A stretch of 64,000 bases of DNA, taken from positions 6,108 through 70,107 of the forward strand of contig CALHLF010000010.1 in assembly GCA_938034905.1 (NCBI GenBank), read 5' to 3'. The position numbers and the translations under genes are program-made. This document shows, in pieces, positions 49,413 through 62,975 of this stretch (position 1 is its first letter; every line of letters begins with the position of its first letter). The stretch comes from an uncultured bacterium. GTDB taxonomy: Bacteria; Dictyoglomota; Dictyoglomia; Dictyoglomales; Dictyoglomaceae. Under the pieces are notes generated by a model. That model was given only the letters and a program-made list of their open reading frames with translations. It was not told the DNA's origin and did not search any database.

Positions 49413-50249
49413 CTAAAGATTTAGAAGAGCATCAAGACTTGAGGAAAGATGTTTCAATAATACCTCCTGTTTATATTTATATGGAAAAAATTCTGCGATA
49501 AGATAATCATTATAGTTTATCTCTTTTAATGCAGATATCACTGCTTTCCAATTAACATCTCCCTCTAAAGGCAAAACAAATCCAGAAAGGGTTCCCACAT
49601 CAATTTTAAAATCCTTAATATGTATTTTCTTTATATATTTCCCAAGAATTCTTATCCAATGCTCAGGATAACCTGTTAATAGTACATTCCCAGTATCAAG
49701 ATATATTCCTACATATTCTGAGGATATTTTTTCTAAAAATTCTTTAAATTCTATAGGACTAAGCAAAAATTTATTCCATACATTTTCAAGGGCAATATTA
49801 ACTCTATATTCCTCAGCATATTTACTAAGTTCTAATATTGAAGAAAAACATCTATCATATGCAATATCATAGGGGACTATTTCACTATTCTTATCCCAAG
49901 GAATATTTACTATTCCAGGGACAACTAAAATTGTGTCTGCTCCTAATTCCTCTGCAATCTTTAACCCCCTCTTTACAATCTCTTTTCCCATCTCTACCTT
50001 TTTAGGATCATTACTTGTCAATGGATATTGCCAAAGAATACCAAGAGCAATACTGGGAATTTCTATCCCAAGTCCTTCGGACAATTCTCTTATTCTTTTT
50101 ATATCTTCCCTTTCACTTTTAATACTTAATTCTCCTTCAAAACTAAGGGCCAATTCTATCCCTTGGAATTTATAATCCTTTGCAAGCTTAAAAATCTCTT
50201 CTAAGGATAAATTAGGAGAAAAAGCCCATTGATTAATTCCCTTTTTCAT
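49413..50249 (-). CDS. sugar phosphate isomerase/epimerase (xylose isomerase-like TIM barrel)
   Basis: 278 aa with KKGINQWAF, GIELAL, ALENVWN, LDTGN and HIKD patterns. Lies upstream of bglA in the same direction. Confidence 0.8.
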   Translation of the reverse strand: MKKGINQWAFSPNLSLEEIFKLAKDYKFQGIELALSFEGELSIKSEREDIKRIRELSEGLGIEIPSIALGILWQYPLTSNDPKKVEMGKEIVKRGLKIAEELGADTILVVPGIVNIPWDKNSEIVPYDIAYDRCFSSILELSKYAEEYRVNIALENVWNKFLLSPIEFKEFLEKISSEYVGIYLDTGNVLLTGYPEHWIRILGKYIKKIHIKDFKIDVGTLSGFVLPLEGDVNWKAVISALKEINYNDYLIAEFFPYKYKQEVLLKHLSSSLDALLNL

Positions 50250-50398: not shown

Positions 50399-50475
50399 TG
50401 GCTCCTCGGGCAGGATTCGAACCTGCAACCCGCCGGTTAACAGCCGGCCGCTCTACCGTTGAGCTACCGAGGAGC
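50399..50475 (-). tRNA. tRNA-Asn (anticodon GUU), CCA encoded
   Basis: The minus strand reads GCTCCTCGGTAGCTCAACGGTAGAGC GGCCGG CTGTTAA CCGGC..GGTTCGAATCC..GAGGAGCCA, which folds as a cloverleaf. Confidence 0.95.
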
Positions 50476-50532: not shown

Positions 50533-51555
50533 TTACTCTCCTAAATATTCTTTAACAAGTTTTATATTCTCCTCTATAAGATCAGGAATGGGAAGTCCAT
50601 AGGGACATCTTGGAAGACACTTTCCACATCTTGTGCAATTCTGAGCTTTTAGATAAGCATCATAAAACCATCCACTACTTATATTATCCCGGGACAATCT
50701 TTTTATGAAGGAATCTGCTCTAATAATTACGGAAATAGGTATTCCCTGAGGACAAGGTTGACAGTAATCACATCTTCTACAGAAGATTTGTCCAAGTTCT
50801 TTTCTTGTTCGCTCAATTTCCTCCCATTCTTCATAAGTTAACGGGGAAGGATCCATAGCAATTTTCACATTTTCCTCCACCTCTTCTATAGTTTCCATTC
50901 CTGGATCGGGAATGATAAATTCCTTCTGTAAAACGAATTTCAAGGCAAGCTTTGGATTAGGAAGAACTCCACCTCCTATTGGTTTCATAGCAATAATTCC
51001 AATATCTCTTTCAAGAGCCATGGAAAAAATTTTTTCTTCTACTTTTGTCTCTATAAAGTTATAACATAACTGAACTACATCGAATCTATCAGTAGCAATT
51101 AACTCTTCTAATAAGTCAGTACTATGGCTTGATACAGCAATAAAATCAATAAGTCCCTCCTCCTTTGCTTTTAAAAGACCATAATAGGCACCATCAGAGG
51201 AAAACACTTTATTAAAACTCTCTTTATCATTTACCCCATGAAGATGATAGATATCAATCTTTTCTACCTCTAAATTTTTTAAACTAATTTTTATATCCTC
51301 ATAAATTCCATCTTTTGTCCTATTGGGAGACTTAGAGGAAATATATACCTTTTTGTTAATCCCCTTTATCGCTTTTCCAATTTTAATCTCACTATCTCTA
51401 TATCCCCTTGCAGTATCAATTAAGTTAACTCCTAATTCAATTGCCCTTCTTACAACCCTTATCGCCTCTTCTTCACTTATTCTTTGAATGGGAATTCCAC
51501 CAAAGGCAATGGGAAAAACTTCAATATTTGTTCTTCCAAGTCTTCTGTATTTCAT
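50533..51555 (-). CDS. aldo/keto reductase fused to a C-terminal 2x[4Fe-4S]-type Cys cluster domain
   Basis: AKR N-terminus (MKYRRLGRTNIEVFPIAFGG, IDTARGY) plus CRRCDYCQPCP and CTRCGKCLPRCP. Confidence 0.85.
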   Translation of the reverse strand: MKYRRLGRTNIEVFPIAFGGIPIQRISEEEAIRVVRRAIELGVNLIDTARGYRDSEIKIGKAIKGINKKVYISSKSPNRTKDGIYEDIKISLKNLEVEKIDIYHLHGVNDKESFNKVFSSDGAYYGLLKAKEEGLIDFIAVSSHSTDLLEELIATDRFDVVQLCYNFIETKVEEKIFSMALERDIGIIAMKPIGGGVLPNPKLALKFVLQKEFIIPDPGMETIEEVEENVKIAMDPSPLTYEEWEEIERTRKELGQIFCRRCDYCQPCPQGIPISVIIRADSFIKRLSRDNISSGWFYDAYLKAQNCTRCGKCLPRCPYGLPIPDLIEENIKLVKEYLGE

Positions 51556-51587
51556 ATAACAACCTCCCTAATTTTAACTTTCCTTTA

Positions 51588-51616
51588 ATAATATTGAAAA
51601 TTTAACATCAGGACAA
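51588..51616 (-). promoter_or_regulatory. candidate promoter of the AKR-ferredoxin gene
   Basis: Minus strand ATTACCCTTGTCC, 17-nt spacer, TATTAT. It mirrors the tctC promoter. Confidence 0.45.
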
Positions 51617-51671
51617 GGGTAATGATTAATGATAATTTTGAATTTTTAGTCTGAGCTTCAAATTATTACCC

Positions 51672-51700
51672 TTGACATTTAATCCTTCATATGTTAGTAT
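51672..51700 (+). promoter_or_regulatory. sigma-70-like promoter of the tctCBA-isomerase-crotonase-cupin-BKACE operon
   Basis: TTGACA (51672-51677), 17-nt spacer, TAGTAT (51695-51700). The -10 overlaps the 13-bp box. Confidence 0.55.
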
Positions 51701-51709
51701 ACAGTATAC
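51697..51709. promoter_or_regulatory. 13-bp box GTATACAGTATAC (site 1, perfect): candidate GntR operator
   Basis: Two GTATAC palindromic hexamers spaced 7 bp apart, overlapping the -10/+1 of the tctC promoter. Confidence 0.6.
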
Positions 51710-51826
51710 AAAGCAACAATAAATTATTTAAAAAGTTTTCAAAATTATATGTAAGGAGGTGAGAAGTTTAAGTATATTTCATCTTTCCTTTTTACATAAT
51801 AATCTCTTAAGGAGGGAGATATCAAA

Positions 51827-52837
51827 ATGTTTAAAAAATTAAATCTGATTCTTGTTATAATTTCACTTTTGGGATTGTTATTTCTCTCAACTAATATAGC
51901 TGCAGAATGGCCTAGAAGACCAATTACTATAGCATGTTTTGCAGCAGCAGGGGGAGGAACTGATCTAACTAATAGAACCCTTGCAGGGGTAATGGAAAAA
52001 TATTTAAAAGTCCCAATAAATGTAGTTAATATGACTGGAGCAGGGGGAGCTGAAGCTGTAAACTATGTATGGCAACAAAAGCATGATGGTTATACGTGGC
52101 TTGGCCATTCTGAAGGAATACTACTTATGCCACTAATGGGAGCCTTTCCACATACTACAAAGGTCTGGGAAAGTTTTATACTTTGTGGTTCACCAGAACT
52201 CTTCTCTGTAAGAAGTGATTCTCCCTATAAAACAATGGCAGAAGTTTTAGAGGCAGCAAAAACAAAAGAAATTAAAGTTGGTGCATCAATCCCAGGAGCT
52301 ATTCACCATATGAAACTAATGTATTTAGTAAGGGTAACAGGGCTTAAATTTAAATATGTCCCATATCCTGGAAGTTATCCTTCTCAAGTAGCTTGTTTGG
52401 CTGGAGAAGTAGATGCAGTAATGACATCTTTGCAAGAGCAAAGTGAGCTTTTAAAGGCTGGGAAATTGAGAGCTCTTGCAGCAATAGAAAAAACAGCCTT
52501 AGATGTTCCCGGAATTGGAAAAATACCATCTATTGTGGATTGGGTACCACAATTTAAGAAAATTCCTGAAATTAAGCAGATGTTAGGCTTTTCTGTTCCT
52601 TATGATGTTCCTGCGGATGTAATAACTAAAATTAGAACTGCTTATATATATGCCCTAAGATCAGAAGAGGTCAAAAACTTTATAGATAAAAATTATCTTA
52701 TACTATATGGACTCTATGGAACAAGGGCTAAATCATTTATTCAAAAGTTAGAAAGTATATTTGCATGGCTTGCATGGGAAGCAGGACTTGTTAAAGAATC
52801 TCCTGAAAAGTTTGATATACCAAAGCCAGCATTTTAG
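51827..52837 (+). CDS. tctC: tripartite tricarboxylate transporter substrate-binding protein (TctC/Bug family)
   Basis: Signal peptide and AAGGGTDLTNRTLA...VVNMTGAGGAEA...DGYTWLG, typical of Bug/TctC. Confidence 0.85.
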   Translation: MFKKLNLILVIISLLGLLFLSTNIAAEWPRRPITIACFAAAGGGTDLTNRTLAGVMEKYLKVPINVVNMTGAGGAEAVNYVWQQKHDGYTWLGHSEGILLMPLMGAFPHTTKVWESFILCGSPELFSVRSDSPYKTMAEVLEAAKTKEIKVGASIPGAIHHMKLMYLVRVTGLKFKYVPYPGSYPSQVACLAGEVDAVMTSLQEQSELLKAGKLRALAAIEKTALDVPGIGKIPSIVDWVPQFKKIPEIKQMLGFSVPYDVPADVITKIRTAYIYALRSEEVKNFIDKNYLILYGLYGTRAKSFIQKLESIFAWLAWEAGLVKESPEKFDIPKPAF

Positions 52838-52850
52838 TTGAGGTATATCT

Positions 52851-53348
52851 ATGCTTAAAAAAGAATCTTTAAGAAAAGCAGATGTTATATCTTCCATAAT
52901 ATTGATAATATTAGGGATCTACGTTATAAAAGAAGCTTTAAAAATGCCAGCAACAGGACTTCCAGGTACGGTAGAACAGGAGTTCTATCTGGCACCAGGT
53001 TTTTTCCCAATTATTGTAGCTATAGTATTAATAATTATGGGTTTATTTTTGTTAATAAATGGAATAAGGTCTGGAGGGAGAATCTCAAAAGATGATTTGA
53101 GAAAATTTGTAAAAATATTTACATCAAAAAATGCTATAAGATCTATAGTAATAACAGCTCTAATAATTATATATACCATCATATTGTTAGGAAGGATACC
53201 TTTCTTTTGGGCAACTTTTATCTTCTTAGCAGGTTCCATGTTTTTTCTTAAAGCAGGCTCTTGGTGGAGTATACTCCTGATTTCTACTATAGGTTCTCTA
53301 ATAATACAATACTGTTTCGGAACCTTAGCGAGAATCCCCCTCCCATAG
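52851..53348 (+). CDS. tctB: tripartite tricarboxylate transporter small membrane subunit TctB
   Basis: 165 aa with 4 TM helices, positioned between tctC and tctA. Confidence 0.7.
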   Translation: MLKKESLRKADVISSIILIILGIYVIKEALKMPATGLPGTVEQEFYLAPGFFPIIVAIVLIIMGLFLLINGIRSGGRISKDDLRKFVKIFTSKNAIRSIVITALIIIYTIILLGRIPFFWATFIFLAGSMFFLKAGSWWSILLISTIGSLIIQYCFGTLARIPLP

Positions 53349-53358
53349 GGGGATTCTC
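53330..53358 (+). other. strong intercistronic stem-loop spanning the tctB stop codon
   Basis: GAGAATCCCCC tcccata GGGGGATTCTC. An 11-bp perfect stem with no following T-run, 27 nt upstream of the tctA start. Confidence 0.7.
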
Positions 53359-53385
53359 CATATAATTAGATGGGAGGATAAATTA

Positions 53386-54894
53386 ATGGGGCTATTTATA
53401 TTTTTTCAGGAACTTATTAATCTAATTACTAATGGACAAATTTTATTTTTAATGTTTATATCCACTATTTTAGGAATAATAATTGGAGCTTTACCAGGTC
53501 TTACTGCTACTATGGGAATTGCCCTTCTAACAGGAATTACCTTTGGTCTCCCTGCTAAATTAGCTGTTCCTATTTTAATATCTATATATGATGGTGCTAT
53601 ATTTGGAGGATCTATAGCTGCTGTCTTAATAAATATTCCAGGGACTCCTGCTTCTGCAGCTACAGCTCTCGATGGATATCCTTTGGCAAAACAGGGAAAA
53701 GCAAAGGAAGCATTACTTATAACAAGAATTGCATCATTTATAGGAAGTTTATTTGGAATGATATGTCTCTTAGAGATTGCTCCTTTGTTAAGTAAAGTTG
53801 CATTACAATTTACCTCTCCAGAATTCGCTTTATTGGCCCTCTTTGGAATAACTATTTGTGGTTCCTTAACAGCACCAGATTTAGCAATAAAAGGTTGGAT
53901 TGCTGGGTTTTTAGGAATTTTAGTTTCATGTATTGGGATGGATGGTCTTCATGGATTTCCAAGATTTACCTTTAATATACCAGAACTTCTCGGAGGAATA
54001 GCCTATGTACCAGCTATGATAGGTGTATTTGGAATACCTCAAGTTCTTATTTCTTTAAGATATTCTACTGGAGAAATGGCAAGAATTATAGAAGTAAAGA
54101 CCAAATTAATGAATATATTAAGGATAATAAAAAATCATATTTTTTGTGTATTGAGATCAGGAGTGATAGGTGTATATGTAGGAACAATTCCAGGGGTTGG
54201 AGAGGATGTTGCATCATGGCTTTCTTATGATACAGCAAAAAGAAGCAGTAAAAACTCTGAATCCTTTGGAAAAGGAGCCTACGAAGGAATTATAGCTTCA
54301 GAAACAGCAAATAACGCTTGCATAGGTGGAGCTATAATTCCTCTATTGACCTTAGGAATTCCTGGCAGTCCTCCTGCTGCGGTACTTCTTGGAGCATTAC
54401 TTCTTCATGGTATAAGGCCTGGTCCCATGTTACAGTTTGAATTTCCCAATTTTATATACGAAATGTCAGCATTACTGGCTATAGCAAGCTTTCTTTTATT
54501 AATTTGTGGAACATTAATGACAAGCATTTTAGTGCCCATATTAAGAAGAACAAAAAATGAAATCCTTATGCCTATAGTTGCTACTCTCTGTGTAATAGGT
54601 GCTTATGCCATAAATATAAGTCTTTTTGATATTAAAGTTATGGTAATTTTGGGACTTCTTGGTTATATTCTTGTAGAAATGGGATATCCCATGGCACCCT
54701 TTGTTTTAGGAGTTATTTTAGGGCCAATGATTGATGTAAATTTAAGAAGAACTTTACTTACCTCAAATGGAAGCTTACTTCCCTTTGTTACCCGCCCAGT
54801 GAGTATAATACTTTTAATACTTATTGCTTTCTCCTTCATCTCTCAAACCTCTTGGTGGAAAAATAGAAAAAAGAAAGGAGTAAAGGTATCATGA
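53386..54894 (+). CDS. tctA: tripartite tricarboxylate transporter large permease TctA
   Basis: 502 aa, multi-TM, with GALPGLTATMGIALL, NIPGTPASAATALDGYPLAKQG and GIPGSPPAAVLLGAL motifs. Confidence 0.9.
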   Translation: MGLFIFFQELINLITNGQILFLMFISTILGIIIGALPGLTATMGIALLTGITFGLPAKLAVPILISIYDGAIFGGSIAAVLINIPGTPASAATALDGYPLAKQGKAKEALLITRIASFIGSLFGMICLLEIAPLLSKVALQFTSPEFALLALFGITICGSLTAPDLAIKGWIAGFLGILVSCIGMDGLHGFPRFTFNIPELLGGIAYVPAMIGVFGIPQVLISLRYSTGEMARIIEVKTKLMNILRIIKNHIFCVLRSGVIGVYVGTIPGVGEDVASWLSYDTAKRSSKNSESFGKGAYEGIIASETANNACIGGAIIPLLTLGIPGSPPAAVLLGALLLHGIRPGPMLQFEFPNFIYEMSALLAIASFLLLICGTLMTSILVPILRRTKNEILMPIVATLCVIGAYAINISLFDIKVMVILGLLGYILVEMGYPMAPFVLGVILGPMIDVNLRRTLLTSNGSLLPFVTRPVSIILLILIAFSFISQTSWWKNRKKKGVKVS

Positions 54895-55853
54895 GACCAA
54901 AATATTCTGTTATTACTGGTTTTCTTGGGAGACTTACTGATAGGTTTGCAGAATACCAACCTCCAAGATCCTTAGAGGAAAAATTTGAATTAGCTAAAAA
55001 AATTTCTAAATGTTCTGGTTTAGAGTTAATCTATCCTTCTGACTTTTCTGATCCTATCCTCTTAAAAAAATTACTAAAAGATTATAATCTTGAAGCTTCT
55101 GCGGTAAATCTAAATGTAAAGAGTGAAGAAAAATGGAGATTTGGATCTTTCTCTTCAAAAGATAAGAAGGTAAGAGATGAAGCAATAAAATATATGAAAT
55201 CTGCTATGGATTTTGCAGTAGAATTGGGATGTAATTTAGTCACTTGTGCCCTTCTAAATGATGGAAATGATTATCCCTTTGAGGTAGATTACATTAAGGC
55301 ATGGGAGGCTACTGTAGATTCTATTAGAGAATGTGCAGATTATAGGAAGGATGTAAAGATTAGTATTGAATATAAGCTTTGTGAACCAAGAATGCATGTA
55401 ATTATAGGAAATGCAGGTAAGGCTGCCTTTTTCTGTGATCAGGTAGGTAGAGAAAATGTTGGAGTAACCTTAGATGTAGGACATGCTTTTCAATCCTTAG
55501 AAAATCCTGCTGAAAGCTTAGCAGTACTTGGGAGCACAGGAAAACTTTTTTATGTGCATATAAACGATAATTACAGAAATTGGGATTGGGATATGATACC
55601 AGGCACTGTAAATTTTTGGGAGTATATAGAGTTTGCATTGTATCTTAGAAAAATTGGCTATAATTCCTGGATTACTGCAGACGTTTTCCCTCAAAGATTG
55701 GATCCAGTAAAAGTCTTTACAAAAACCTTTGAGTGGATGGATTTATTATTTGATATTGCAGAAGAATTAGAAAGAAGAAATATCTTTGAGCTTATTGAAA
55801 AGGGAGATATTCTTGAAACATTGTCATTAATTAATTCTGTATTGAAAGGTTAA
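54891..55853 (+). CDS. sugar (phosphate) isomerase/epimerase, xylose isomerase-like TIM barrel
   Basis: 320 aa with IEYKLCEP, LDVGHA and HINDN metal-ligand-like pattern. Overlaps the tctA stop by 4 nt. Confidence 0.75.
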   Translation: MRPKYSVITGFLGRLTDRFAEYQPPRSLEEKFELAKKISKCSGLELIYPSDFSDPILLKKLLKDYNLEASAVNLNVKSEEKWRFGSFSSKDKKVRDEAIKYMKSAMDFAVELGCNLVTCALLNDGNDYPFEVDYIKAWEATVDSIRECADYRKDVKISIEYKLCEPRMHVIIGNAGKAAFFCDQVGRENVGVTLDVGHAFQSLENPAESLAVLGSTGKLFYVHINDNYRNWDWDMIPGTVNFWEYIEFALYLRKIGYNSWITADVFPQRLDPVKVFTKTFEWMDLLFDIAEELERRNIFELIEKGDILETLSLINSVLKG

Positions 55854-55866
55854 ATCGAAAGGAAAA

Positions 55867-56592
55867 ATGACTAAGTTTATAGAGGTAGAAGAAAGGTCTC
55901 CCCTATTGATATTAAGATTAAACCGGCCTGAATTTCAAAATAGATTAAATATAGAAATGATGGAAGAGATAATTTCTCACTTAGATAAAGCAGAAAAAGA
56001 TGCTAATATAAAGGTTGTAGTGTTATCTTCTAAGGGAAATATTTTCTGTGCAGGAGGAGATTTAGGGAATTATAAAAAGGTCTCAGAGTTAAGAAGATTT
56101 GGAGAAAGATTTATTAAGCTACACCTAAGAATTGTTAAGCTAAACAAACCAGTTATTTGTGCAATAGAAGGGGGAGCTTATGGGGGTGGCTTAAGCTTAG
56201 TAGATGCTTGTGATCTTGCTGTTGCATCCCAAAATGCGACCTTTGGTTTTCCTGAAATTAGATCTAATTTAGCTCCAATGATGTCTTTGGCAGGTATAGG
56301 AAGAACTATAAGTAGAAAAACTATAAATGAATTATCTTTAACAGCCAAAGAAATTTCTGCAGAGGAAGCTAAAAAACTTGGAATAATAAATCAAATCGTA
56401 GAAGATGGAAAAGCAGAAGAAGTTGTAATTGATTTAGCTCTTGAGATCTCTAAAAAAGATAGTTCTGCTATCTCGTTTTATAAATATCTTTTTGGACATC
56501 TTTATGAAAAAGATTTTGAGGAAAGGATGGAAAAGGGCTTAAATGTATTGATCAATTTGTTAAAAGAGAAGGAGGAAACTAATTTTAAATGA
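55867..56592 (+). CDS. enoyl-CoA hydratase/isomerase (crotonase) superfamily protein
   Basis: 241 aa with FCAGGDLG and GGAYGGGLSLVDACDLAVAS..ATFGFPEI oxyanion-hole motifs. Confidence 0.85.
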   Translation: MTKFIEVEERSPLLILRLNRPEFQNRLNIEMMEEIISHLDKAEKDANIKVVVLSSKGNIFCAGGDLGNYKKVSELRRFGERFIKLHLRIVKLNKPVICAIEGGAYGGGLSLVDACDLAVASQNATFGFPEIRSNLAPMMSLAGIGRTISRKTINELSLTAKEISAEEAKKLGIINQIVEDGKAEEVVIDLALEISKKDSSAISFYKYLFGHLYEKDFEERMEKGLNVLINLLKEKEETNFK

Positions 56593-57137
56593 TTACTAAG
56601 AGACAATATTTAGAATATAAAGAGCTTGGCATAAAATATCTTGAGAAGGCTTATGTAATAATAAGAGAAGATGAAAAGGAAAAAATAGAAGTGGCAGATT
56701 TTGGATTAAGTGATCTTGATAATTTTGCTATAATAACTTTAACCTTCTTTAATACGGAGAGAATTAGTGCAAAAGTAATAGTAGTTCCTCCAAGAAGAAT
56801 ATGCCCAGAACATTGGCATCCCCCCGTTGTCCATGACCCTGGAAAGGAAGAAATCATGAGATTAAGATGGGGAACTCTTTATTTGTATGTGGAGGGAGAA
56901 AAAACTTCAAATCCCAAAGCTAAGTTACCAGAGTATAGAAGAAAGTATTTTACTGTCTGGCATGAAATTATCATGAAACCAGGGGATCAATATTATCTTC
57001 CTCCTGGAGTTAAACACTGGTTTCAAGCAGGAGACGAAGGTGCTGTAATAGATGATTATTCTACATGTTCCCGAGATGCTTTAGATCAATTTACTGATCC
57101 AGATATTGTTAGAATTCCAGTAATAAAGGAGGAGTAA
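56589..57137 (+). CDS. cupin-fold sugar isomerase (D-lyxose/D-mannose isomerase-like)
   Basis: 182 aa. CPEHWHP....GKEE..RLRWGTLYLYV...KHWFQAG resembles the H-x-H / K-x-E / H cupin metal site of lyxose isomerases. Assignment is tentative. Confidence 0.5.
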   Translation: MITKRQYLEYKELGIKYLEKAYVIIREDEKEKIEVADFGLSDLDNFAIITLTFFNTERISAKVIVVPPRRICPEHWHPPVVHDPGKEEIMRLRWGTLYLYVEGEKTSNPKAKLPEYRRKYFTVWHEIIMKPGDQYYLPPGVKHWFQAGDEGAVIDDYSTCSRDALDQFTDPDIVRIPVIKEE

Positions 57138-57140
57138 TTA

Positions 57141-57956
57141 ATGAAAAATAAAATAATAGTTGGAGTAGCTCCTGTGGGAGGATGGGGGGAAGGAAATAAT
57201 AATCCATTAACCCCTAAGGAGATAGCAGAAGAAGTTTATAGATGTTGGAATGAGGGAGCCTCATATGTACATCTTCATGTAAGAGATGAAAATGGTAAAT
57301 TGACAGATGATTTAACGTTATTTAAGGAGACTGTGGAACTTATAAAGGCAAAATGTGATATCATTATTGATGGCTCTACAGGAGGGTATCCTTCTCTTAC
57401 ACCTTATCAGAGAAGTCTTGTTTTGGAAGTTCCTGGTGTTGAATTAGCATCATTAAATATGGGATCATGCAATTTTTTTGATGGAGTTTATATTAATTCT
57501 CCAAAGGACATAGAATTTTGGGCAAATAAGATGCATGAAAAAGGTATAAAACCAATATTTGAAGTATTTGAAGTAGGTATGATTGAAAGTGCTAAAAAAA
57601 TTATAAATAAGAATTTATTTTCAGAACCATATCTTTTTGATTTTTGTTTGAATTTTCCTGGTGCAATGCCTATTTCTCCTAAAAATATTCTTTTTTTAGC
57701 AGAATCTTTACCTGAAAACTCTCTTTGGGGATTAGTATATTATAATGGTGAGGATTTTATTTTGATGCAAACTACTGCAATCTGTCTTAATGCTCATATG
57801 GTGAGATGTGGATTTGAAGATAGTCCATATATTGCAAAAGGAGAATTAGCAAAAAGTAATGCTCAACTGGTAGAAAAGCTTGTGGGAATAGCACGAAAAA
57901 TTGGTAAAGATATCGCTACACCTTCTGAGGCAAGAAAAATTATGGGCTTATCTTAA
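57141..57956 (+). CDS. beta-keto acid cleavage enzyme (BKACE / 3-keto-5-aminohexanoate cleavage, DUF849)
   Basis: 271 aa with IIVGVAPVGG...NPLTPKEIAEEV..CWNEGASYVHLHVRDENGK, the hallmark BKACE N-terminus. Confidence 0.85.
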   Translation: MKNKIIVGVAPVGGWGEGNNNPLTPKEIAEEVYRCWNEGASYVHLHVRDENGKLTDDLTLFKETVELIKAKCDIIIDGSTGGYPSLTPYQRSLVLEVPGVELASLNMGSCNFFDGVYINSPKDIEFWANKMHEKGIKPIFEVFEVGMIESAKKIINKNLFSEPYLFDFCLNFPGAMPISPKNILFLAESLPENSLWGLVYYNGEDFILMQTTAICLNAHMVRCGFEDSPYIAKGELAKSNAQLVEKLVGIARKIGKDIATPSEARKIMGLS

Positions 57957-58902
57957 TACCTTCTTTTCTTCTTATCACTTCGATGCATGCCTCTACAATA
58001 TGTTTTGGAGAAAGACCATAAATTTCAAAAAGTTCCTTCCAATCTCCGGATTCTCCAAAGGTATCTTTAAGTCCTATTCTTTTCATGGGAACAGGATAAT
58101 TTTCTACTAATACTTCTGCTACTGCTCCACCAAGTCCACCCATTATATTATGATCTTCACAGGTAACAATCCCTCCTGTTTTTTTTGCCAAAGTGATGAT
58201 AAGTTCTGAATCTATAGGTTTTATAGTGCTCATATCTATTACTTTAACTCTTATTCCCTTTTCTTTTAAAATTTTACTTGCTTCTAACGCCATAAGTACC
58301 ATGATTCCTGTTGCAATTATAGAAACATCATCTCCTTCATCTAAAACTATGTTTCCTTTACCAATTTTAAATTTATAAGATTCATCATATATTATTGGTG
58401 TTGGATTTCTCATAGTTCTTAGATAGGTAGGTCCGTAGTCTTCTGCTATAGCAAAAACTGCCTTTTTAGTTGCCACTGCATCTGCAGGATGAATTACTTT
58501 CATATTAGGCATGGACCTCATTATTGCAATGTCCTCTGTTCCTTGATGAGTTGGGCCATCTGCGCCCACTTGAATCCCTCCATGACTTGCTGCTATTTTT
58601 ACATTTACATTGGGATAACAAATGAAAGTTCTTACTTGTTCACAGGCCCTCATACTTGCAAATACCGCATAAGTACTTGTAAATACAATTTTCCCTGTAA
58701 TAGCTAATCCTGCTGCAACTAACATTAAATTTTGTTCTGCAACTCCCACATTAAAAGCTCTATCTGGGAACATCTTATGGAATTTTGTAGTGTAAGTAGA
58801 TTTTGAGATATCTGCATCAATTACCACCACATTAGGATTTACCTGTCCTAATTCTGCCAAGGCTTCTCCAAAAGCCTCTCTGGTAGCAATTTCCTTTTTC
58901 AT
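57940..58902 (-). CDS. transketolase, C-terminal (Pyr + C-domain) subunit
   Basis: 320 aa with REAFGEAL, FNVGVAEQNL and DGPTHQGTEDIA. Confidence 0.92.
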   Translation of the reverse strand: MKKEIATREAFGEALAELGQVNPNVVVIDADISKSTYTTKFHKMFPDRAFNVGVAEQNLMLVAAGLAITGKIVFTSTYAVFASMRACEQVRTFICYPNVNVKIAASHGGIQVGADGPTHQGTEDIAIMRSMPNMKVIHPADAVATKKAVFAIAEDYGPTYLRTMRNPTPIIYDESYKFKIGKGNIVLDEGDDVSIIATGIMVLMALEASKILKEKGIRVKVIDMSTIKPIDSELIITLAKKTGGIVTCEDHNIMGGLGGAVAEVLVENYPVPMKRIGLKDTFGESGDWKELFEIYGLSPKHIVEACIEVIRRKEGIKISP

Positions 58903-59738
58903 AATTTTAAAACCTCCTTCTCCAATTCTTCCATAGCTTTTTTATACTCCTCTTCCTTAGGTGCAAGTCCATGCCATTCTACTTCATTTTCCATAAAAGA
59001 TACCCCTTTCCCTTTTACAGTATGGGCAATGAGAACTGAAGGCCCTCCCACTTTAAATGCCCATTGAAAAGCATTTAGAATCTCTTCAATATTGTGTCCA
59101 TCCACTTCTTTTACCTTCCATCCAAATGCCTCCCATTTTTCTTTAAATGGTTCTACATTCATAATTTCCCTCAGCCATCCATCTACTTCAAGGCCGTTAT
59201 AATCTACAATTGCGAAGAGATTATCCAATTTGTAATGAGCTGCACACATCGCAGCTTCCCATATACTACCCTCCTGACATTCCCCATCTCCTAATAATAC
59301 AAAAACTCTTGATCTCTTATTTGACATTTTTAATCCTAAAGCCATTCCCACACCAATACCTAATCCATTTCCAAGGGATCCTGAAGTATAATCAACTCCA
59401 GGGGTTTTTTTCATATCTGGATGCCCTTGAAGAATAGAGTGAGTTTTTCTTAAGGTCCAAAGATGTTCCCTATCAAAAAATCCTCTTTTAGCAAGAGCAG
59501 CATAATGAATGGGACAGGAATGTCCCTTAGAAAGGATAAATCTATCTCTATCTTCCCATGCTGGATTCTTAGGATCAATGTTCATAATCTCGAAATACAA
59601 AACTGATATTATTTCTGCCGAGGAAAGAGAGCCTCCTGGATGTCCTGCCTTTGCTCTATAAATCATCTCAATTACATCTTTTCTCAACTCCCATGCTATT
59701 TTTTTAAGTCGCCTTACTTTCTCTTCCCATATTTCCAT
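58899..59738 (-). CDS. transketolase, N-terminal (ThDP PP-domain) subunit
   Basis: 279 aa with GHPGGSLS, LSKGH and GDGECQEGSIWEA. 4-nt overlap with the C-terminal subunit. Confidence 0.92.
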   Translation of the reverse strand: MEIWEEKVRRLKKIAWELRKDVIEMIYRAKAGHPGGSLSSAEIISVLYFEIMNIDPKNPAWEDRDRFILSKGHSCPIHYAALAKRGFFDREHLWTLRKTHSILQGHPDMKKTPGVDYTSGSLGNGLGIGVGMALGLKMSNKRSRVFVLLGDGECQEGSIWEAAMCAAHYKLDNLFAIVDYNGLEVDGWLREIMNVEPFKEKWEAFGWKVKEVDGHNIEEILNAFQWAFKVGGPSVLIAHTVKGKGVSFMENEVEWHGLAPKEEEYKKAMEELEKEVLKL

Positions 59739-59772
59739 ACTAATTTCCTCCCAAATCCTTAATATGAATACC

Positions 59773-59785
59773 GTATACAGTATTC
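59773..59785. promoter_or_regulatory. 13-bp box GTATACAGTATtC (site 2): candidate GntR operator
   Basis: Abuts the -10 hexamer of the transketolase promoter. 12 of 13 positions match site 1. Confidence 0.55.
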
Positions 59786-59814
59786 ATTATAGCAAGTAAA
59801 AGCTAAAAATACAA
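59786..59814 (-). promoter_or_regulatory. sigma-70-like promoter of the split-transketolase operon
   Basis: Minus strand TTGTAT, 17-nt spacer, TATAAT. Confidence 0.5.
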
Positions 59815-59828
59815 GATGTGATTTTTTA

Positions 59829-61193
59829 CTAGTTTATAAACTTTCTATAGACTTCTAAAAGAGTATCTTCATCCCCCACATTTCCAGGAAAAACTATATA
59901 AAGAAGTCCTGGATATTTACTTTCTTCTCCCAATTCCCATACAGGTATACCAGGGAAAATTTGACCTAAAACTTTAACCTTTTTTGCTTTTAGCCCTTTT
60001 TGAGCTAATATATGAGAAGTTATTCCTCCCTTTACTATTATGAAATCAGGCCTTTCCTTAAGATTTTTTACTAAATTACTCAAGAAACTTGATATTCTTT
60101 GTCCTATCCTAAGGGGACTAAATTTTTCATCTTTAAAATATTCTCTTTCAGTATATATAACTACGGATTTTCTATTCTTTAACATTTCATCAGTTTTTAG
60201 AGTAATATTTTTTAAATAATTTTTTGAATTATTTATCACTTCTTTAATTTTAATCTCAATATTTTCCAAACTTGAACTCTTCAGTAACTTTATAAGCTGT
60301 GTTGTAGTCATTTTTACATAGGAACCTACTATTATTAATCCCCTTTCTCCCTTTTTCGGCAATATCAAATCCTTTTCTTCCAAGCCTCCTCGAATTTTTA
60401 CAAACGAGGCTGCGGTTCTATATAAAAATCTTTTCCCTTTCTTTTCTGACTCTAATAATCCTAATACAAAAACCTCTAAATCCTCATCACAAAGAGAATT
60501 AACAATTATAGGTCTTCCATTTTTTACTTTTAACAAAATTTCTTTAACTCTTTCAGGCCCTCCCAATCTTATATCTTCAATAGAAATAGATAAAACATCC
60601 TCTTTTTTCCAAAAACTTTTAGATTTTTCCTCTATCCAAGAGGGAAGATGAGCATTTTTATATCCAAAAATTGGATCTAAACTAAATTCTGTTTTATTTA
60701 CCTCTATTAATTTATCATTTCTTATTAAAAAATGATAGTCAAATATTGTAATTCTTTTTCCCTCACCAAAATATGGGATAATAATTATCCCATCGTATGG
60801 TCCTAAAAAATCCATTAGAGTTTTGACTTCTCCAAAGAAATGTCCCCGAAGGGTAGAATCACTTCTACTTATTATCTTGAGATGTTTTATATCTAAATAT
60901 TTTAAAAATTTTTGGGCTATCTCCCTATTTAAAGATATTGCTTTCCTCTCAGAGTATGCCCGTGAATTAGTGAGAATATAGAATATATTCTCTTTAAGAA
61001 TTACATCTTTTAAAATAGGTTCCTCAAAATTTAGAAGCAATAAGAGATCATGAACTGTTTGGCATCCTGTAGGATCATCATCTAATACTATGATCTTATC
61101 CTTTGAAATCTGATTCGCTTCTTTTATTTTCTTTCTTGCATCGGGTATTTTTAGTACTTTTGGTAAATTCTTACTAATTTCTGAATACTTCAT
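59829..61193 (-). CDS. four-carbon acid-sugar kinase family protein (DUF1537; OtnK/DtnK-like)
   Basis: 454 aa. The N-terminal IIVLDDDPTGCQT motif and two-domain length are typical of DUF1537. Confidence 0.8.
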   Translation of the reverse strand: MKYSEISKNLPKVLKIPDARKKIKEANQISKDKIIVLDDDPTGCQTVHDLLLLLNFEEPILKDVILKENIFYILTNSRAYSERKAISLNREIAQKFLKYLDIKHLKIISRSDSTLRGHFFGEVKTLMDFLGPYDGIIIIPYFGEGKRITIFDYHFLIRNDKLIEVNKTEFSLDPIFGYKNAHLPSWIEEKSKSFWKKEDVLSISIEDIRLGGPERVKEILLKVKNGRPIIVNSLCDEDLEVFVLGLLESEKKGKRFLYRTAASFVKIRGGLEEKDLILPKKGERGLIIVGSYVKMTTTQLIKLLKSSSLENIEIKIKEVINNSKNYLKNITLKTDEMLKNRKSVVIYTEREYFKDEKFSPLRIGQRISSFLSNLVKNLKERPDFIIVKGGITSHILAQKGLKAKKVKVLGQIFPGIPVWELGEESKYPGLLYIVFPGNVGDEDTLLEVYRKFIN

Positions 61194-61206
61194 GAGGAGA
61201 TAAAAG

Positions 61207-62184
61207 TTATTTTTTATTTAATACTTCCTTATTAACTAAGGTCCTTGGAATTCTTCCCTCAAAATAATCAATTATATTCTCAGCACATAAAATTGACATT
61301 CCAGATCTTGCGGTTTCTGTTGCACTTCCTATATGAGGCAACATAACTACATTTTCAAGTTCAGCAAGTTCTGGTTCAAATTCAGGTTCCCTCTCATATA
61401 CATCTAATCCTGCTCCCCAAATCCATCCTTCCTTTAAGGCTTTTACTAATGCTTTTTCATCTACTATAGGGCCTCTTGCAGTATTTATCAATATAGCAGA
61501 ACTTTTCATAAGTCTTAATTCTCTTTCTGAAATAAGATGTCTTGTTTGGGGAGTTAAGGGAACATGTATAGAGATAAAATCTGATTCCTTTAAAAGAGTA
61601 TCAAGATCTACAAACTGAGCGGGAATTTCCTTTTCTGCATTTTCATTTCTTACAAGATCATAGTACAAAACTCTCATATTAAATCCTTTAGACATTTTTG
61701 CAAAAGCATATCCGATTCTTCCCATTCCAATTATTCCTAAAACTTTTCCCGAAATCTCTTTTCCTAAAAAAAGCATAGGCCCCCATCCTTTATATTGCCC
61801 TGCTCTCATAAATTTATCCGCAGGAATAATTCTTCTTGCCGTTGCAAAAAGTAATGCCCAAGCAAGTTCTGCGGTAGCATTGGTTAAAACCCCTGGGGTA
61901 TTGGTAACAAATACTCCCCTTTTCGTTGCCTCTTCTAAGTCAATATTATCGTATCCTACTGCGTAATTTGCCACTATCTTAATATTCTTACCTACCTCAA
62001 AAAATTCTTTATCTACTTTATCTACAAGTTGAGTTATTACAGCATCCTTATCTTTAATCCCTTCTAATAATTCTTCTCGGGTTAGAGGTCTGTCATATGG
62101 ACTTACTTCTACATAAAATCCCTTCTCTTTTAATAAATTAATTCCATCCTCCATAATCTTACGCGTAACAAATATCCTTTTCAT
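61207..62184 (-). CDS. D-isomer-specific 2-hydroxyacid dehydrogenase (glyoxylate/hydroxypyruvate reductase-like)
   Basis: GIIGMGRIGYAFA NAD motif, NTARG and LPHIGSAT catalytic His region. The start is taken at MKRIFVTRK (ATG 62182-62184, RBS GGGAGGG) rather than the track start. Confidence 0.9.
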   Translation of the reverse strand: MKRIFVTRKIMEDGINLLKEKGFYVEVSPYDRPLTREELLEGIKDKDAVITQLVDKVDKEFFEVGKNIKIVANYAVGYDNIDLEEATKRGVFVTNTPGVLTNATAELAWALLFATARRIIPADKFMRAGQYKGWGPMLFLGKEISGKVLGIIGMGRIGYAFAKMSKGFNMRVLYYDLVRNENAEKEIPAQFVDLDTLLKESDFISIHVPLTPQTRHLISERELRLMKSSAILINTARGPIVDEKALVKALKEGWIWGAGLDVYEREPEFEPELAELENVVMLPHIGSATETARSGMSILCAENIIDYFEGRIPRTLVNKEVLNKK

Positions 62185-62207
62185 AAAAGTCCCTCCCATA
62201 AAAAATT

Positions 62208-62220
62208 GTATACAGTACAC
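62208..62220. promoter_or_regulatory. 13-bp box GTATACAGTAcAC (site 3): candidate GntR operator
   Basis: Abuts the extended -10 (TGtTATAAT, 62221-62229, minus strand) upstream of the dehydrogenase-kinase unit. Confidence 0.55.
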
Positions 62221-62229
62221 ATTATAACA
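62221..62229 (-). promoter_or_regulatory. extended -10 promoter element TGtTATAAT for the dehydrogenase-kinase unit
   Basis: The reverse complement of attataaca is tgttataat. Confidence 0.45.
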
Positions 62230-62275
62230 TAAACAAATTAATTTTTAAATAAATCAATTTTCAGAAAGATTATTC

Positions 62276-62902
62276 TTATAAAGATTCTATTTTTCTAATA
62301 GTTCTCCTAATATGCTCTCTCATTAATTCCTCGGCCTTTTTACTATCTTTTTCTTTCAAAGCTTCTATAATTCCTAAATGTTCTGGCAAAGTTTCCTTTG
62401 GATCTCTCAATAAACCTTGAAAGAGACATACAGAAAGAAGCCAGAAATTATTTGTTGCTTGACTTAAAATATGATTTCTAACACGTTTTGCTAATCCCGT
62501 ATGGAATTCAATATCCGTATTCCTATATTCTGTGTAATCTCCTTTTTCCACCGAAGACTTATATCGGGACTCTATCTCATTTAGCCATTCAATATCAGGA
62601 TCTTTAGCTGTGAGTCTCGCAGTTAGGCCCTCTAATAAAGCTCTTATTTCAAATATTATTACTAATTCTTCTCGAGTTAATTCCCTAACGTATAATCTGC
62701 CATTTTCCTCTCTTACTAAATATTCCTTTTCTAATTGACTGAGAGCCCTTCTCAAAGGAGTTCTACTTACTCCCATTTCCTTTGCAATTTGTTCCTGAAT
62801 AATCTGATCGCCAGGTTTTAAGATTCCTTTTAAGATCATCTCTTTTAATTTTTCGTAAACTAAAATATCTAATGTCTTTTTTTCTATTTTTGATATCCTC
62901 AT
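62276..62902 (-). CDS. GntR family transcriptional regulator, FadR subfamily (FCD effector domain)
   Basis: 208 aa. wHTH EQIAKEMGVSRTPLRRALSQLEKEYLV and an all-helical C-terminal FCD-like domain with His residues (EFH, EH). Confidence 0.9.
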   Translation of the reverse strand: MRISKIEKKTLDILVYEKLKEMILKGILKPGDQIIQEQIAKEMGVSRTPLRRALSQLEKEYLVREENGRLYVRELTREELVIIFEIRALLEGLTARLTAKDPDIEWLNEIESRYKSSVEKGDYTEYRNTDIEFHTGLAKRVRNHILSQATNNFWLLSVCLFQGLLRDPKETLPEHLGIIEALKEKDSKKAEELMREHIRRTIRKIESL

Positions 62903-62928
62903 TCTATCCTCCCTTTCTTATTTTGTTA

Positions 62929-62941
62929 GCATACAGTATAC
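62929..62941. promoter_or_regulatory. 13-bp box GcATACAGTATAC (site 4): candidate autoregulatory GntR operator
   Basis: Overlaps a minus-strand TGgTATACT extended -10 upstream of the GntR gene. Confidence 0.55.
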
Positions 62942-62975
62942 CATATTTTCTTTATTTTTATAAAACAAAGAAAAA

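Follow-up and report, generated by a model that had tools for sequence, protein, structure and literature searches.

Which protein reads a 13-bp sequence that recurs at four promoters of an 11-kb locus in a Dictyoglomus-like thermophile, and which genes does it bring together? The locus lies in the window, a 64,000-nucleotide stretch of contig C10 from a 1.84-Mb genome with 32% G+C (G000, the genome analysed here). A sequence-only reading of the window had noted the box, of the GTATACAGTATAC type, at 51697, 59773, 62208 and 62929, and had proposed it as the operator of a GntR protein. A direct sequence search found the four boxes exactly as they had been written. Our analysis favours the proposal: with a probability that we place at roughly 85%, the boxes would be operators of the local FCD-type GntR regulator encoded at 62276–62902 (hereafter P0001). 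The support for this prediction is comparative, in that the box tracks the regulator gene across genomes; the strongest argument for the local regulator is that the box stays with its gene rather than with the target genes.

A hexamer array at four promoters

The four elements are listed below.

Box 1, 51697..51709, unstranded: the exact GTATACAGTATAC, as two hexamers GTATACaGTATAC, overlapping the −10 element of the tctC operon promoter by the last 4 nt of that element
Box 2, 59766..59785, unstranded: a three-hexamer, 20-bp array, GAATACcGTATACaGTATTC, immediately following the −10 element of the minus-strand promoter of the split transketolase
Box 3, 62208..62220, unstranded: GTATACAGTACAC, as hexamers GTATACaGTACAC, abutting the −10 element of the dehydrogenase-kinase operon promoter
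Box 4, 62929..62941, unstranded: GCATACAGTATAC, as hexamers GCATACaGTATAC, overlapping the −10 element of the gntR promoter; the predicted autoregulatory site of gntR

The box had been described as two GTATAC palindromes. The hexamer pair is real, but the true unit is the palindromic hexamer GTATAC itself, which occurs in 2–5 copies at a strict 7-bp period, and the element is an array of varying length rather than a fixed 13-mer. Likewise, the 13-mer that had been read at Box 2 (GTATACAGTATTC, 59773–59785) is present, but the real element there is the 20-bp array of three hexamers. When 45 hexamers from 17 arrays were compared, the end positions were found to be nearly invariant (G1 in 45/45, C6 in 44/45), while the four inner positions vary, the commonest variant being GAATAC. 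A third in-phase hexamer is enriched far above chance; the arrays are partly related by descent (the orthologous sites being partly non-independent), so that the P value for this enrichment is an upper bound on its significance.

The occurrence of the box was compared with chance expectation in the window and in the genome. With up to two mismatches, 11 strand-matches were found in the window, against 0.56 expected from dinucleotide shuffles, and the number 11 was reached in 0/100 shuffles. In the whole 1.84 Mb, the pattern GTATAC-N-GTATAC with up to one mismatch has 6 matches, against 0.75–2.3 expected under Markov models of order 1–5; 5 of these are at the four promoters of the locus, and the sixth (C62:2064) lies inside a surE-like coding frame. 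When two mismatches are allowed, the number rises to 37, of which 31 are in long open reading frames (ORFs) and 6 are intergenic, 5 of the latter being in the locus. The matches with exactly two mismatches are at background level (31 observed, 23–53 expected). Thus, the signal consists of near-perfect copies clustered at promoters and not of a general excess of the word. The sequence-only reading had suggested a genome-wide mismatch search, comparing intergenic with coding DNA, as a check; it was run here, and the only intergenic copies with up to one mismatch in the genome are those in the 11-kb locus, at its four promoters. By our own binomial arithmetic, the presence of four of about five independent matches within 0.6% of the genome corresponds to P ~ 7e-9. 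A wider regulon was also considered. The remaining genomic matches with up to two mismatches are coding, except for the AT-rich C3:42466, and no further members are proposed.

The candidate regulator and the box in other genomes

P0001 carries a Pfam GntR winged helix (E = 3e-15) and an FCD domain (E = 2e-20), both above the cut-offs. Its second-best match among solved structures (E = 6e-11) is Atu1419 of Agrobacterium fabrum, a VanR group FCD GntR protein (PDB 6Z74, 6ZA0, 6ZA3, 6ZA7), whose crystal structure on ATGTATACAT has a single dimer on each palindrome and in which Arg45 reads the essential terminal G of that sequence (PMC7797058). R47, T48 and R51 of P0001 align with Arg45, Thr46 and Arg49 of Atu1419 in the recognition helix alpha-3 (SRTPLR); across 15 aligned proteins, every orthologue has the SRTPxR motif, and the distant homologues have SR-x-P-x-R. 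The nearly invariant G1/C6 of the hexamer, next to variable inner positions, matches the reading of the essential G by Arg45 (PMC7797058). Three His residues of P0001 (fHtgla, eHlgii, reHirr) align with those of Atu1419, and by this alignment only, the effector domain is predicted to hold a metal-binding histidine triad. The GT..AC palindrome preference that had been ascribed to the FadR subfamily agrees with its published operator consensus, NyGTM-N0-1-KACNy (PMC4494728). Every feature that we tested for an FCD GntR operator/regulator pair was found: the domains, the helix residues, the GT...AC core, sites at the own and adjacent promoters, the co-occurrence in other genomes and the His triad.

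A GntR paralogue on contig C19 (36% identical) was considered as the binder and rejected; its upstream region lacks a GTATAC box and carries another palindrome. This palindrome (CATTTTAAATTTAAAATG, ~15030–15085 of C19, outside the window) has a near-copy in the divergent promoter region, and the paralogue probably has its own, different operator.

Phylogenetic footprinting had been named as a further check. The acid-sugar kinase of the locus was found in 0/12 relatives searched (same genus, same family and more distant genomes), and the footprinting therefore relied on orthologues of the regulator from metagenomic contigs, whose loci were examined individually. The boxes were found to be kept at the orthologous promoters, as listed below (percentages are identities of the regulator).

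L034, 83%: same gene order; boxes before gntR, before the dehydrogenase gene (GAATACtGTATACcGTGTCC) and before the transketolase genes (a 20-mer identical to Box 2 of the window)
L035/L036, 75%: same gene order; boxes before gntR and the dehydrogenase gene
L046 (the whole contig of L040), 77%: same gene order; boxes before gntR, the dehydrogenase gene and tctC
L039, 59%: heads an operon for an ABC sugar transporter, a TIM-barrel enzyme and a split transketolase; GTATGCgGTATACaGTATTCgGTATAAaCTATAA after its own promoter
L038, 60%: operon as in L039; GTGTACgGTATACtGAATTCgGTGTGC
L043, 49%: ABC-transporter operon; TATTAT, then GTATACgGTATTCgGCATAC
L042, 51%: ABC-transporter operon; TATAAT, then GTGCACaGTGCTCaGTACAC, the same architecture with a GTGCAC variant

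The counterparts of the individual boxes can be followed. The tctC box of L046 is an exact GTATACAGTATAC after TTGACA-17-TAATCT, at the position equivalent to Box 1; the dehydrogenase box is a three-hexamer array in L034, L035 and L046; and the gntR box, the counterpart of Box 4, is kept in L021, L034, L035 and L046. In L035/L036, where the kinase and transketolase genes are 22 bp apart and fused into one operon, no box is found between them. The 49–60% orthologues carry 3–5 in-phase hexamers immediately behind a promoter of the form TTGACA/TTGACT-17-(−10 hexamer). The DNA-binding domains of L042 and L043 are almost identical, and we name no residues that explain GTGCAC in the former against GTATAC in the latter. 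Of the 11 orthologue contexts that were examined, 9 have a box ahead of gntR, irrespective of the operon that follows.

Relics of the regulator were found twice. In the sister genome G003 (L021 9941–10613), from which the target genes have been lost, gntR is a frameshifted pseudogene and the kinase gene is absent, with the box GGATACAGTATAC kept ~30 bp before the old start codon; in a second Dictyoglomota relic (L037 7560–8124), gntR is truncated and the box has decayed. These two relics, together with the kinase in 0/12 relatives, suggest that the regulon is an accessory island subject to repeated loss. Both regulon types include genes for a split transketolase and a TIM-barrel enzyme, which hints at a common effector. 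The operon in L038 (1744–9554) and L039 (9951–17787) also encodes an unknown 358-aa protein, and it resembles the transketolase route of D-apiose catabolism.

The exact 13-mer, as part of the 18-mer TTGTATACAGTATACTAA, was also found adjoining FCD GntR genes in four unrelated phyla, namely, in Isosphaeraceae, Anaerolineales, Syntrophorhabdales and Woeseiaceae, where the proteins are 24–39% identical to P0001. A locus from Fusobacteriaceae (L030) likewise pairs the exact 13-mer with an FCD regulator gene.

Promoter placement and candidate binders

The positions of the boxes relative to genes and promoters bear on how they might act. The genes and promoters of the locus are listed below.

50533–51555, minus strand: aldo-keto reductase (AKR) gene with a ferredoxin domain
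51672..51700, plus strand: operon 1 promoter, TTGACA-17-TGtTAGTAT (promoter scan: 10/12 matches, TG present)
51827..57956, plus strand: target operon 1, encoding tctC, tctB, tctA, a TIM-barrel isomerase/epimerase, a crotonase-family protein, a cupin and a BKACE enzyme
57940..59738, minus strand: target operon 2, encoding a split transketolase, N-terminal then C-terminal subunit
59786..59794, minus strand: transketolase promoter, extended −10 TGcTATAAT, read directly; weak −35 TTGTAT at 59809–59814 with a 17-nt spacer
59829–61193, minus strand: DUF1537-type acid-sugar kinase (target operon 3)
61207–62184, minus strand: D-2-hydroxyacid dehydrogenase (target operon 3, 59829..62184), with its probable ATG start at 62184
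62221..62229, minus strand: dehydrogenase-kinase promoter, extended −10 TGtTATAAT (scan: TTTAAA-17-TATAAT, TG present)
62276..62902, minus strand: GntR-family regulator with an FCD effector domain, 208 aa, P0001 (Pfam GntR and FCD)
62935..62943, minus strand: gntR promoter, extended −10 TGgTATACT, inside Box 4 (scan: TTTATA-18-TATACT, TG present)
63018 onward, plus strand: rubrerythrin

As the sequence-only reading had it, each box overlaps or abuts a −10 element, and all four of these are extended −10 elements of the form TGnTAnnnT. The promoter scan lists 3 of the 4 promoters, two of them among its five best-scoring matches. All four boxes are intergenic, as had also been stated. For Box 3, this required a correction of the gene start: the mechanical ORF list places the start of the dehydrogenase at GTG 62220, which would overlap the box, while the orthologues are 325 aa long and ATG 62184, which follows a GGGAGG ribosome-binding site, gives the same length. 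Because ATG 62184 agrees with the orthologues, Box 3 is taken to be intergenic, lying 24 bp ahead of this ATG. With the −10 element and the start site both under the boxes, the placement fits repression, as had been argued earlier.

Several points weigh against P0001 as the reader of the boxes. The sequence alone does not identify its binder, because HgtR of Geobacter sulfurreducens, a 62-aa ribbon-helix-helix-like repressor and global regulator of tricarboxylic acid (TCA)-cycle and energy genes, footprints the identical 13-mer in the gltA promoter; this repressor site lies just downstream of the start site, and the genome query used by those authors, TTGTATACAGTATACTAA, contains the 13-mer (PMC2817479). 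A literature search for the 13-mer brought up this single relevant paper. Among the relatives of P0001, no array precedes the gene of a 61% orthologue (L041), and the GTATAC-like boxes of a 47% homologue (L044) are spaced by ~9–10 bp rather than 7. The promoters were assigned by position, consensus and best-scoring matches only, and the scan is not discriminating in AT-rich DNA (47 matches, 47.4 expected). The 7-bp offset between dimer sites is also tighter than any experimentally shown FCD spacing that we found in the literature, and the simultaneous occupancy of adjacent hexamers is therefore hypothetical.

From the Geobacter finding, one may ask whether an HgtR-type ribbon-helix-helix repressor, or a regulator encoded elsewhere, binds the boxes, with the link to gntR being coincidental or gntR being merely a target. 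HgtR does bind the promoter of a gntR gene, and a site is predicted before an iolE-type TIM-barrel gene (PMC2817479). Moreover, the 18-mer TTGTATACAGTATACTAA was found in 62 species (L048–L109), most of them Geobacter-like or deltaproteobacterial and most without a nearby GntR gene; the 18-mers that lack such a neighbour in these deltaproteobacterial genomes are presumably HgtR sites. We regard this explanation as very unlikely for the present locus. In this lineage, the box always accompanies the GntR orthologue, even with a different downstream operon, and its confinement to one locus in the genome fits a local regulator and not a global one. HgtR homologues have been reported only in Geobacter species, without similarity to known proteins (PMC2817479). 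An HgtR orthologue from Geobacter sp. AOG1 gave no significant match in G000, in six-frame ORFs and DNA (best E = 0.92 with phmmer --max; E = 3.9 with tblastn), although ribbon-helix-helix proteins diverge quickly and this absence in sequence searches is not conclusive. The query was a 61-aa protein encoded downstream of an enhancer-binding protein with an Fe-hydrogenase domain, and YNVISM, a stretch that the published hgtR primer encodes, occurs in it; a search with the primer itself gave a sole match by chance, in secE of a Bacillota metagenome-assembled genome, and hgtR was located via the neighbouring enhancer-binding protein. Of the features of the HgtR regulon, a 13-mer near the start site was thus found here, whereas neither a homologue in the genome nor sites dispersed at TCA-cycle and energy genes were found. 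HgtR differs from the local GntR also in family, the two proteins being unrelated; in the present genome, the box stays within a single locus and goes with a GntR gene. Two unrelated DNA-binding folds seem to use the same word, and a 13-mer read both by a GntR winged helix and by a ribbon-helix-helix protein could be a convergently favoured sequence for tight tandem binding.

The boxes might also be GntR sites of an activator or a dual regulator, as is CitO of Enterococcus, an FCD regulator that is described as an activator (PMC4746285). A CitO-like context exists in the Fusobacteriaceae locus L030, in which the exact 13-mer, right after TTGACA-17-TATAAT, lies between a gene for a 28% identical FCD regulator and an oxaloacetate-decarboxylase operon. 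Activator sites, however, are normally upstream of the −35 hexamer, while the arrays overlap the −10 element or lie between it and the start codon at the four promoters and at the orthologous loci, which is the position of a steric repressor. Activation should also be needless, since sites 2–4 have near-consensus extended −10 elements (TGnTATAAT/TGnTATACT) and site 1 has the consensus −35 TTGACA with TGtTAGTAT. The characterised GTATAC binders Atu1419 (PMC7797058) and DipR (PMC11472048) are repressors. An activating or dual role is thus improbable, if slightly less so than a foreign binder. There is least room for the idea that the boxes have no operator function, acting as hairpins of RNA 5′-leaders or being restriction-type sites or AT-rich palindromes that arose by chance. 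In its favour, the 13-mer is its own complement, the arrays would in part appear in the transcript, and type II restriction enzymes recognise 6-bp palindromes such as GTATAC. However, the predicted hairpins at sites 1, 3 and 4 are negligible (−1.5 to −3.4 kcal/mol at 37 °C, 0 at 70 °C), the likely start site is preceded by part of the box in several cases, and an Rfam search of the region gave no family that matches the boxes; chance is excluded by the genome-wide counts and by the conservation of the boxes amid diverged flanks. We give this idea almost no weight.

Proposed switch, related systems and surroundings

On the reading of the boxes as operators of P0001, what follows is inferred, as regards both the binding and its effect (repression and not activation), the stoichiometry and the nature of the effector. 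Without effector, P0001 dimers would bind the GTATAC hexamers, with an arginine of the SRTPLR helix reading the terminal G of both strands. Because the extended −10 element and the transcription start of all four promoters lie under hexamers, occupied hexamers would exclude RNA polymerase by steric repression. The four units, namely, the operon for the TTT transporter, isomerase, crotonase, cupin and BKACE enzyme, the split transketolase, the dehydrogenase-kinase operon and gntR, would thereby be co-repressed. A pathway intermediate, probably a carboxylate held at the FCD metal site, would bind the regulator and cause its release.

The arrays of 2–5 hexamers at a 7-bp period would most likely allow two or more dimers, or a single dimer that can take different registers, to sit on a promoter. 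One dimer per hexamer is favoured over one per 13-mer, because the hexamer is itself two-fold symmetric, which is needless for a half-site, because arrays with odd numbers of hexamers occur, and because Atu1419 binds a single hexamer. A more specific model is that the operator is a variable-length array in which one FCD dimer sits on each hexamer, successive dimers spiral by ~240 degrees per step and bind cooperatively, and the array length sets the strength of repression at each promoter. MetJ, which binds tandem met boxes, and NanR on its (GGTATA)3 operator offer models for such cooperative binding to an array. In the literature, we found no such packing described for palindromic FCD operators, and the array model is put forward tentatively, as one that may well prove wrong.

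The switch can be compared with known ones, and Atu1419 is close in several respects. Like it, the present system combines a GntR winged helix with an FCD domain bearing a (here predicted) metal site, a GTATAC-core operator overlapping the −10 element, and (predicted here) repression of the own gene and of neighbouring catabolic genes. In contrast, the operators of Atu1419 are isolated 10-bp palindromes 109–190 bp apart, bound by a DNA-looping tetramer, whereas here 2–5 hexamers follow one another at a 7-bp period. The sequence similarity between Atu1419 and P0001 is distant, and the effector (methylene-tetrahydrofolate) and pathway (hydroxycinnamate) of the former are unrelated. Another relative is DipR of Alcaligenes faecalis JQ135, a GntR/FadR family repressor that binds GWATAC at six promoters including its own and whose repression is relieved by the pathway substrate (PMC11472048). 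As predicted here, a single local autoregulated GntR repressor is thus combined with a hexamer at every promoter of a multi-operon catabolic cluster, and the GAATAC tolerated by DipR is also the commonest variant in our arrays. The DipR sites are described as single hexamers, and the organism, pathway and effector differ. The footprint published for dipA, TTTGTATAAGGTATTCAATCTAA, contains by our own reading GTATAAgGTATTC, two hexamers at the 7-bp phase, on which its authors do not comment (PMC11472048).

Closely spaced tandem hexamers that cover a promoter are known from NanR, an FCD GntR protein of E. coli: three dimers bind its (GGTATA)3 operator cooperatively, each offset around the helix (PMC8012715), which indicates that tightly packed FCD dimers are physically possible. 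The NanR units, however, are direct non-palindromic GGTATA repeats bound by asymmetric dimers (PMC8012715, PMC4494728), while those of the present arrays are palindromic GTATAC, and a strict 7-bp phase of palindromic hexamers is not described for NanR. Its cooperativity is attributed to an N-terminal extension, whereas P0001 has only ~14 residues ahead of the DNA-binding domain. A GTATAC-core operator is also known for UxuR, whose site is AAATTGGTATACCAATTT (PMC8092373). From these comparisons, the system is very probably an ordinary local autoregulated repressor switch of the Atu1419/DipR type with a slightly unusual repeat layout, and the 7-bp-phased array is a modest architectural point. 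The array recurs in several phyla, and it could serve as a model of how FCD regulators tune occupancy; the repressor and its operator, coming from a Dictyoglomus-like thermophile, would form a compact and probably thermostable pair.

Through the boxes, four transcription units with 14 genes are joined in one proposed regulon, the members of which are the TTT transporter, TIM-barrel isomerase, crotonase, cupin, BKACE enzyme, split transketolase, 2-hydroxyacid dehydrogenase, DUF1537 kinase and the regulator. The combined pathway of these enzymes is undescribed. In the literature, we found no paper that joins apulose and transketolase, and the papers on DUF1537 and apiose contain neither a GntR regulator nor this gene set. 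The regulon supports a single acid-sugar catabolic route, and the regulator offers a handle for finding its substrate via effector screening.

Upstream of tctC, the divergent AKR promoter had been noted to lack the box, and this was borne out, as the region 51556–51696 has no match at up to two mismatches. The AKR gene is probably outside the regulon, because an orthologous locus has a different gene upstream of tctC. Between the AKR gene and a TIM-barrel gene (49413–50249), a tRNA gene (50402–50473, minus strand; Rfam, 71 bits) was found, which may mark the edge of the accessory island.

The leader of tctC, ~120 nt long, shows a three-part layout at 51745–51826 of the window: a Shine-Dalgarno-like sequence, AAGGAGGTGA, a pyrimidine stretch, CTTTCCTTTT, and the real ribosome-binding site. 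The folds predicted for the leader differ between the window and L046 and are weak at 70 °C. The layout is kept in the 77% orthologous locus (L046 2795–2883), where the pyrimidine stretch is CTCCTC, and the leader could be a translational switch.

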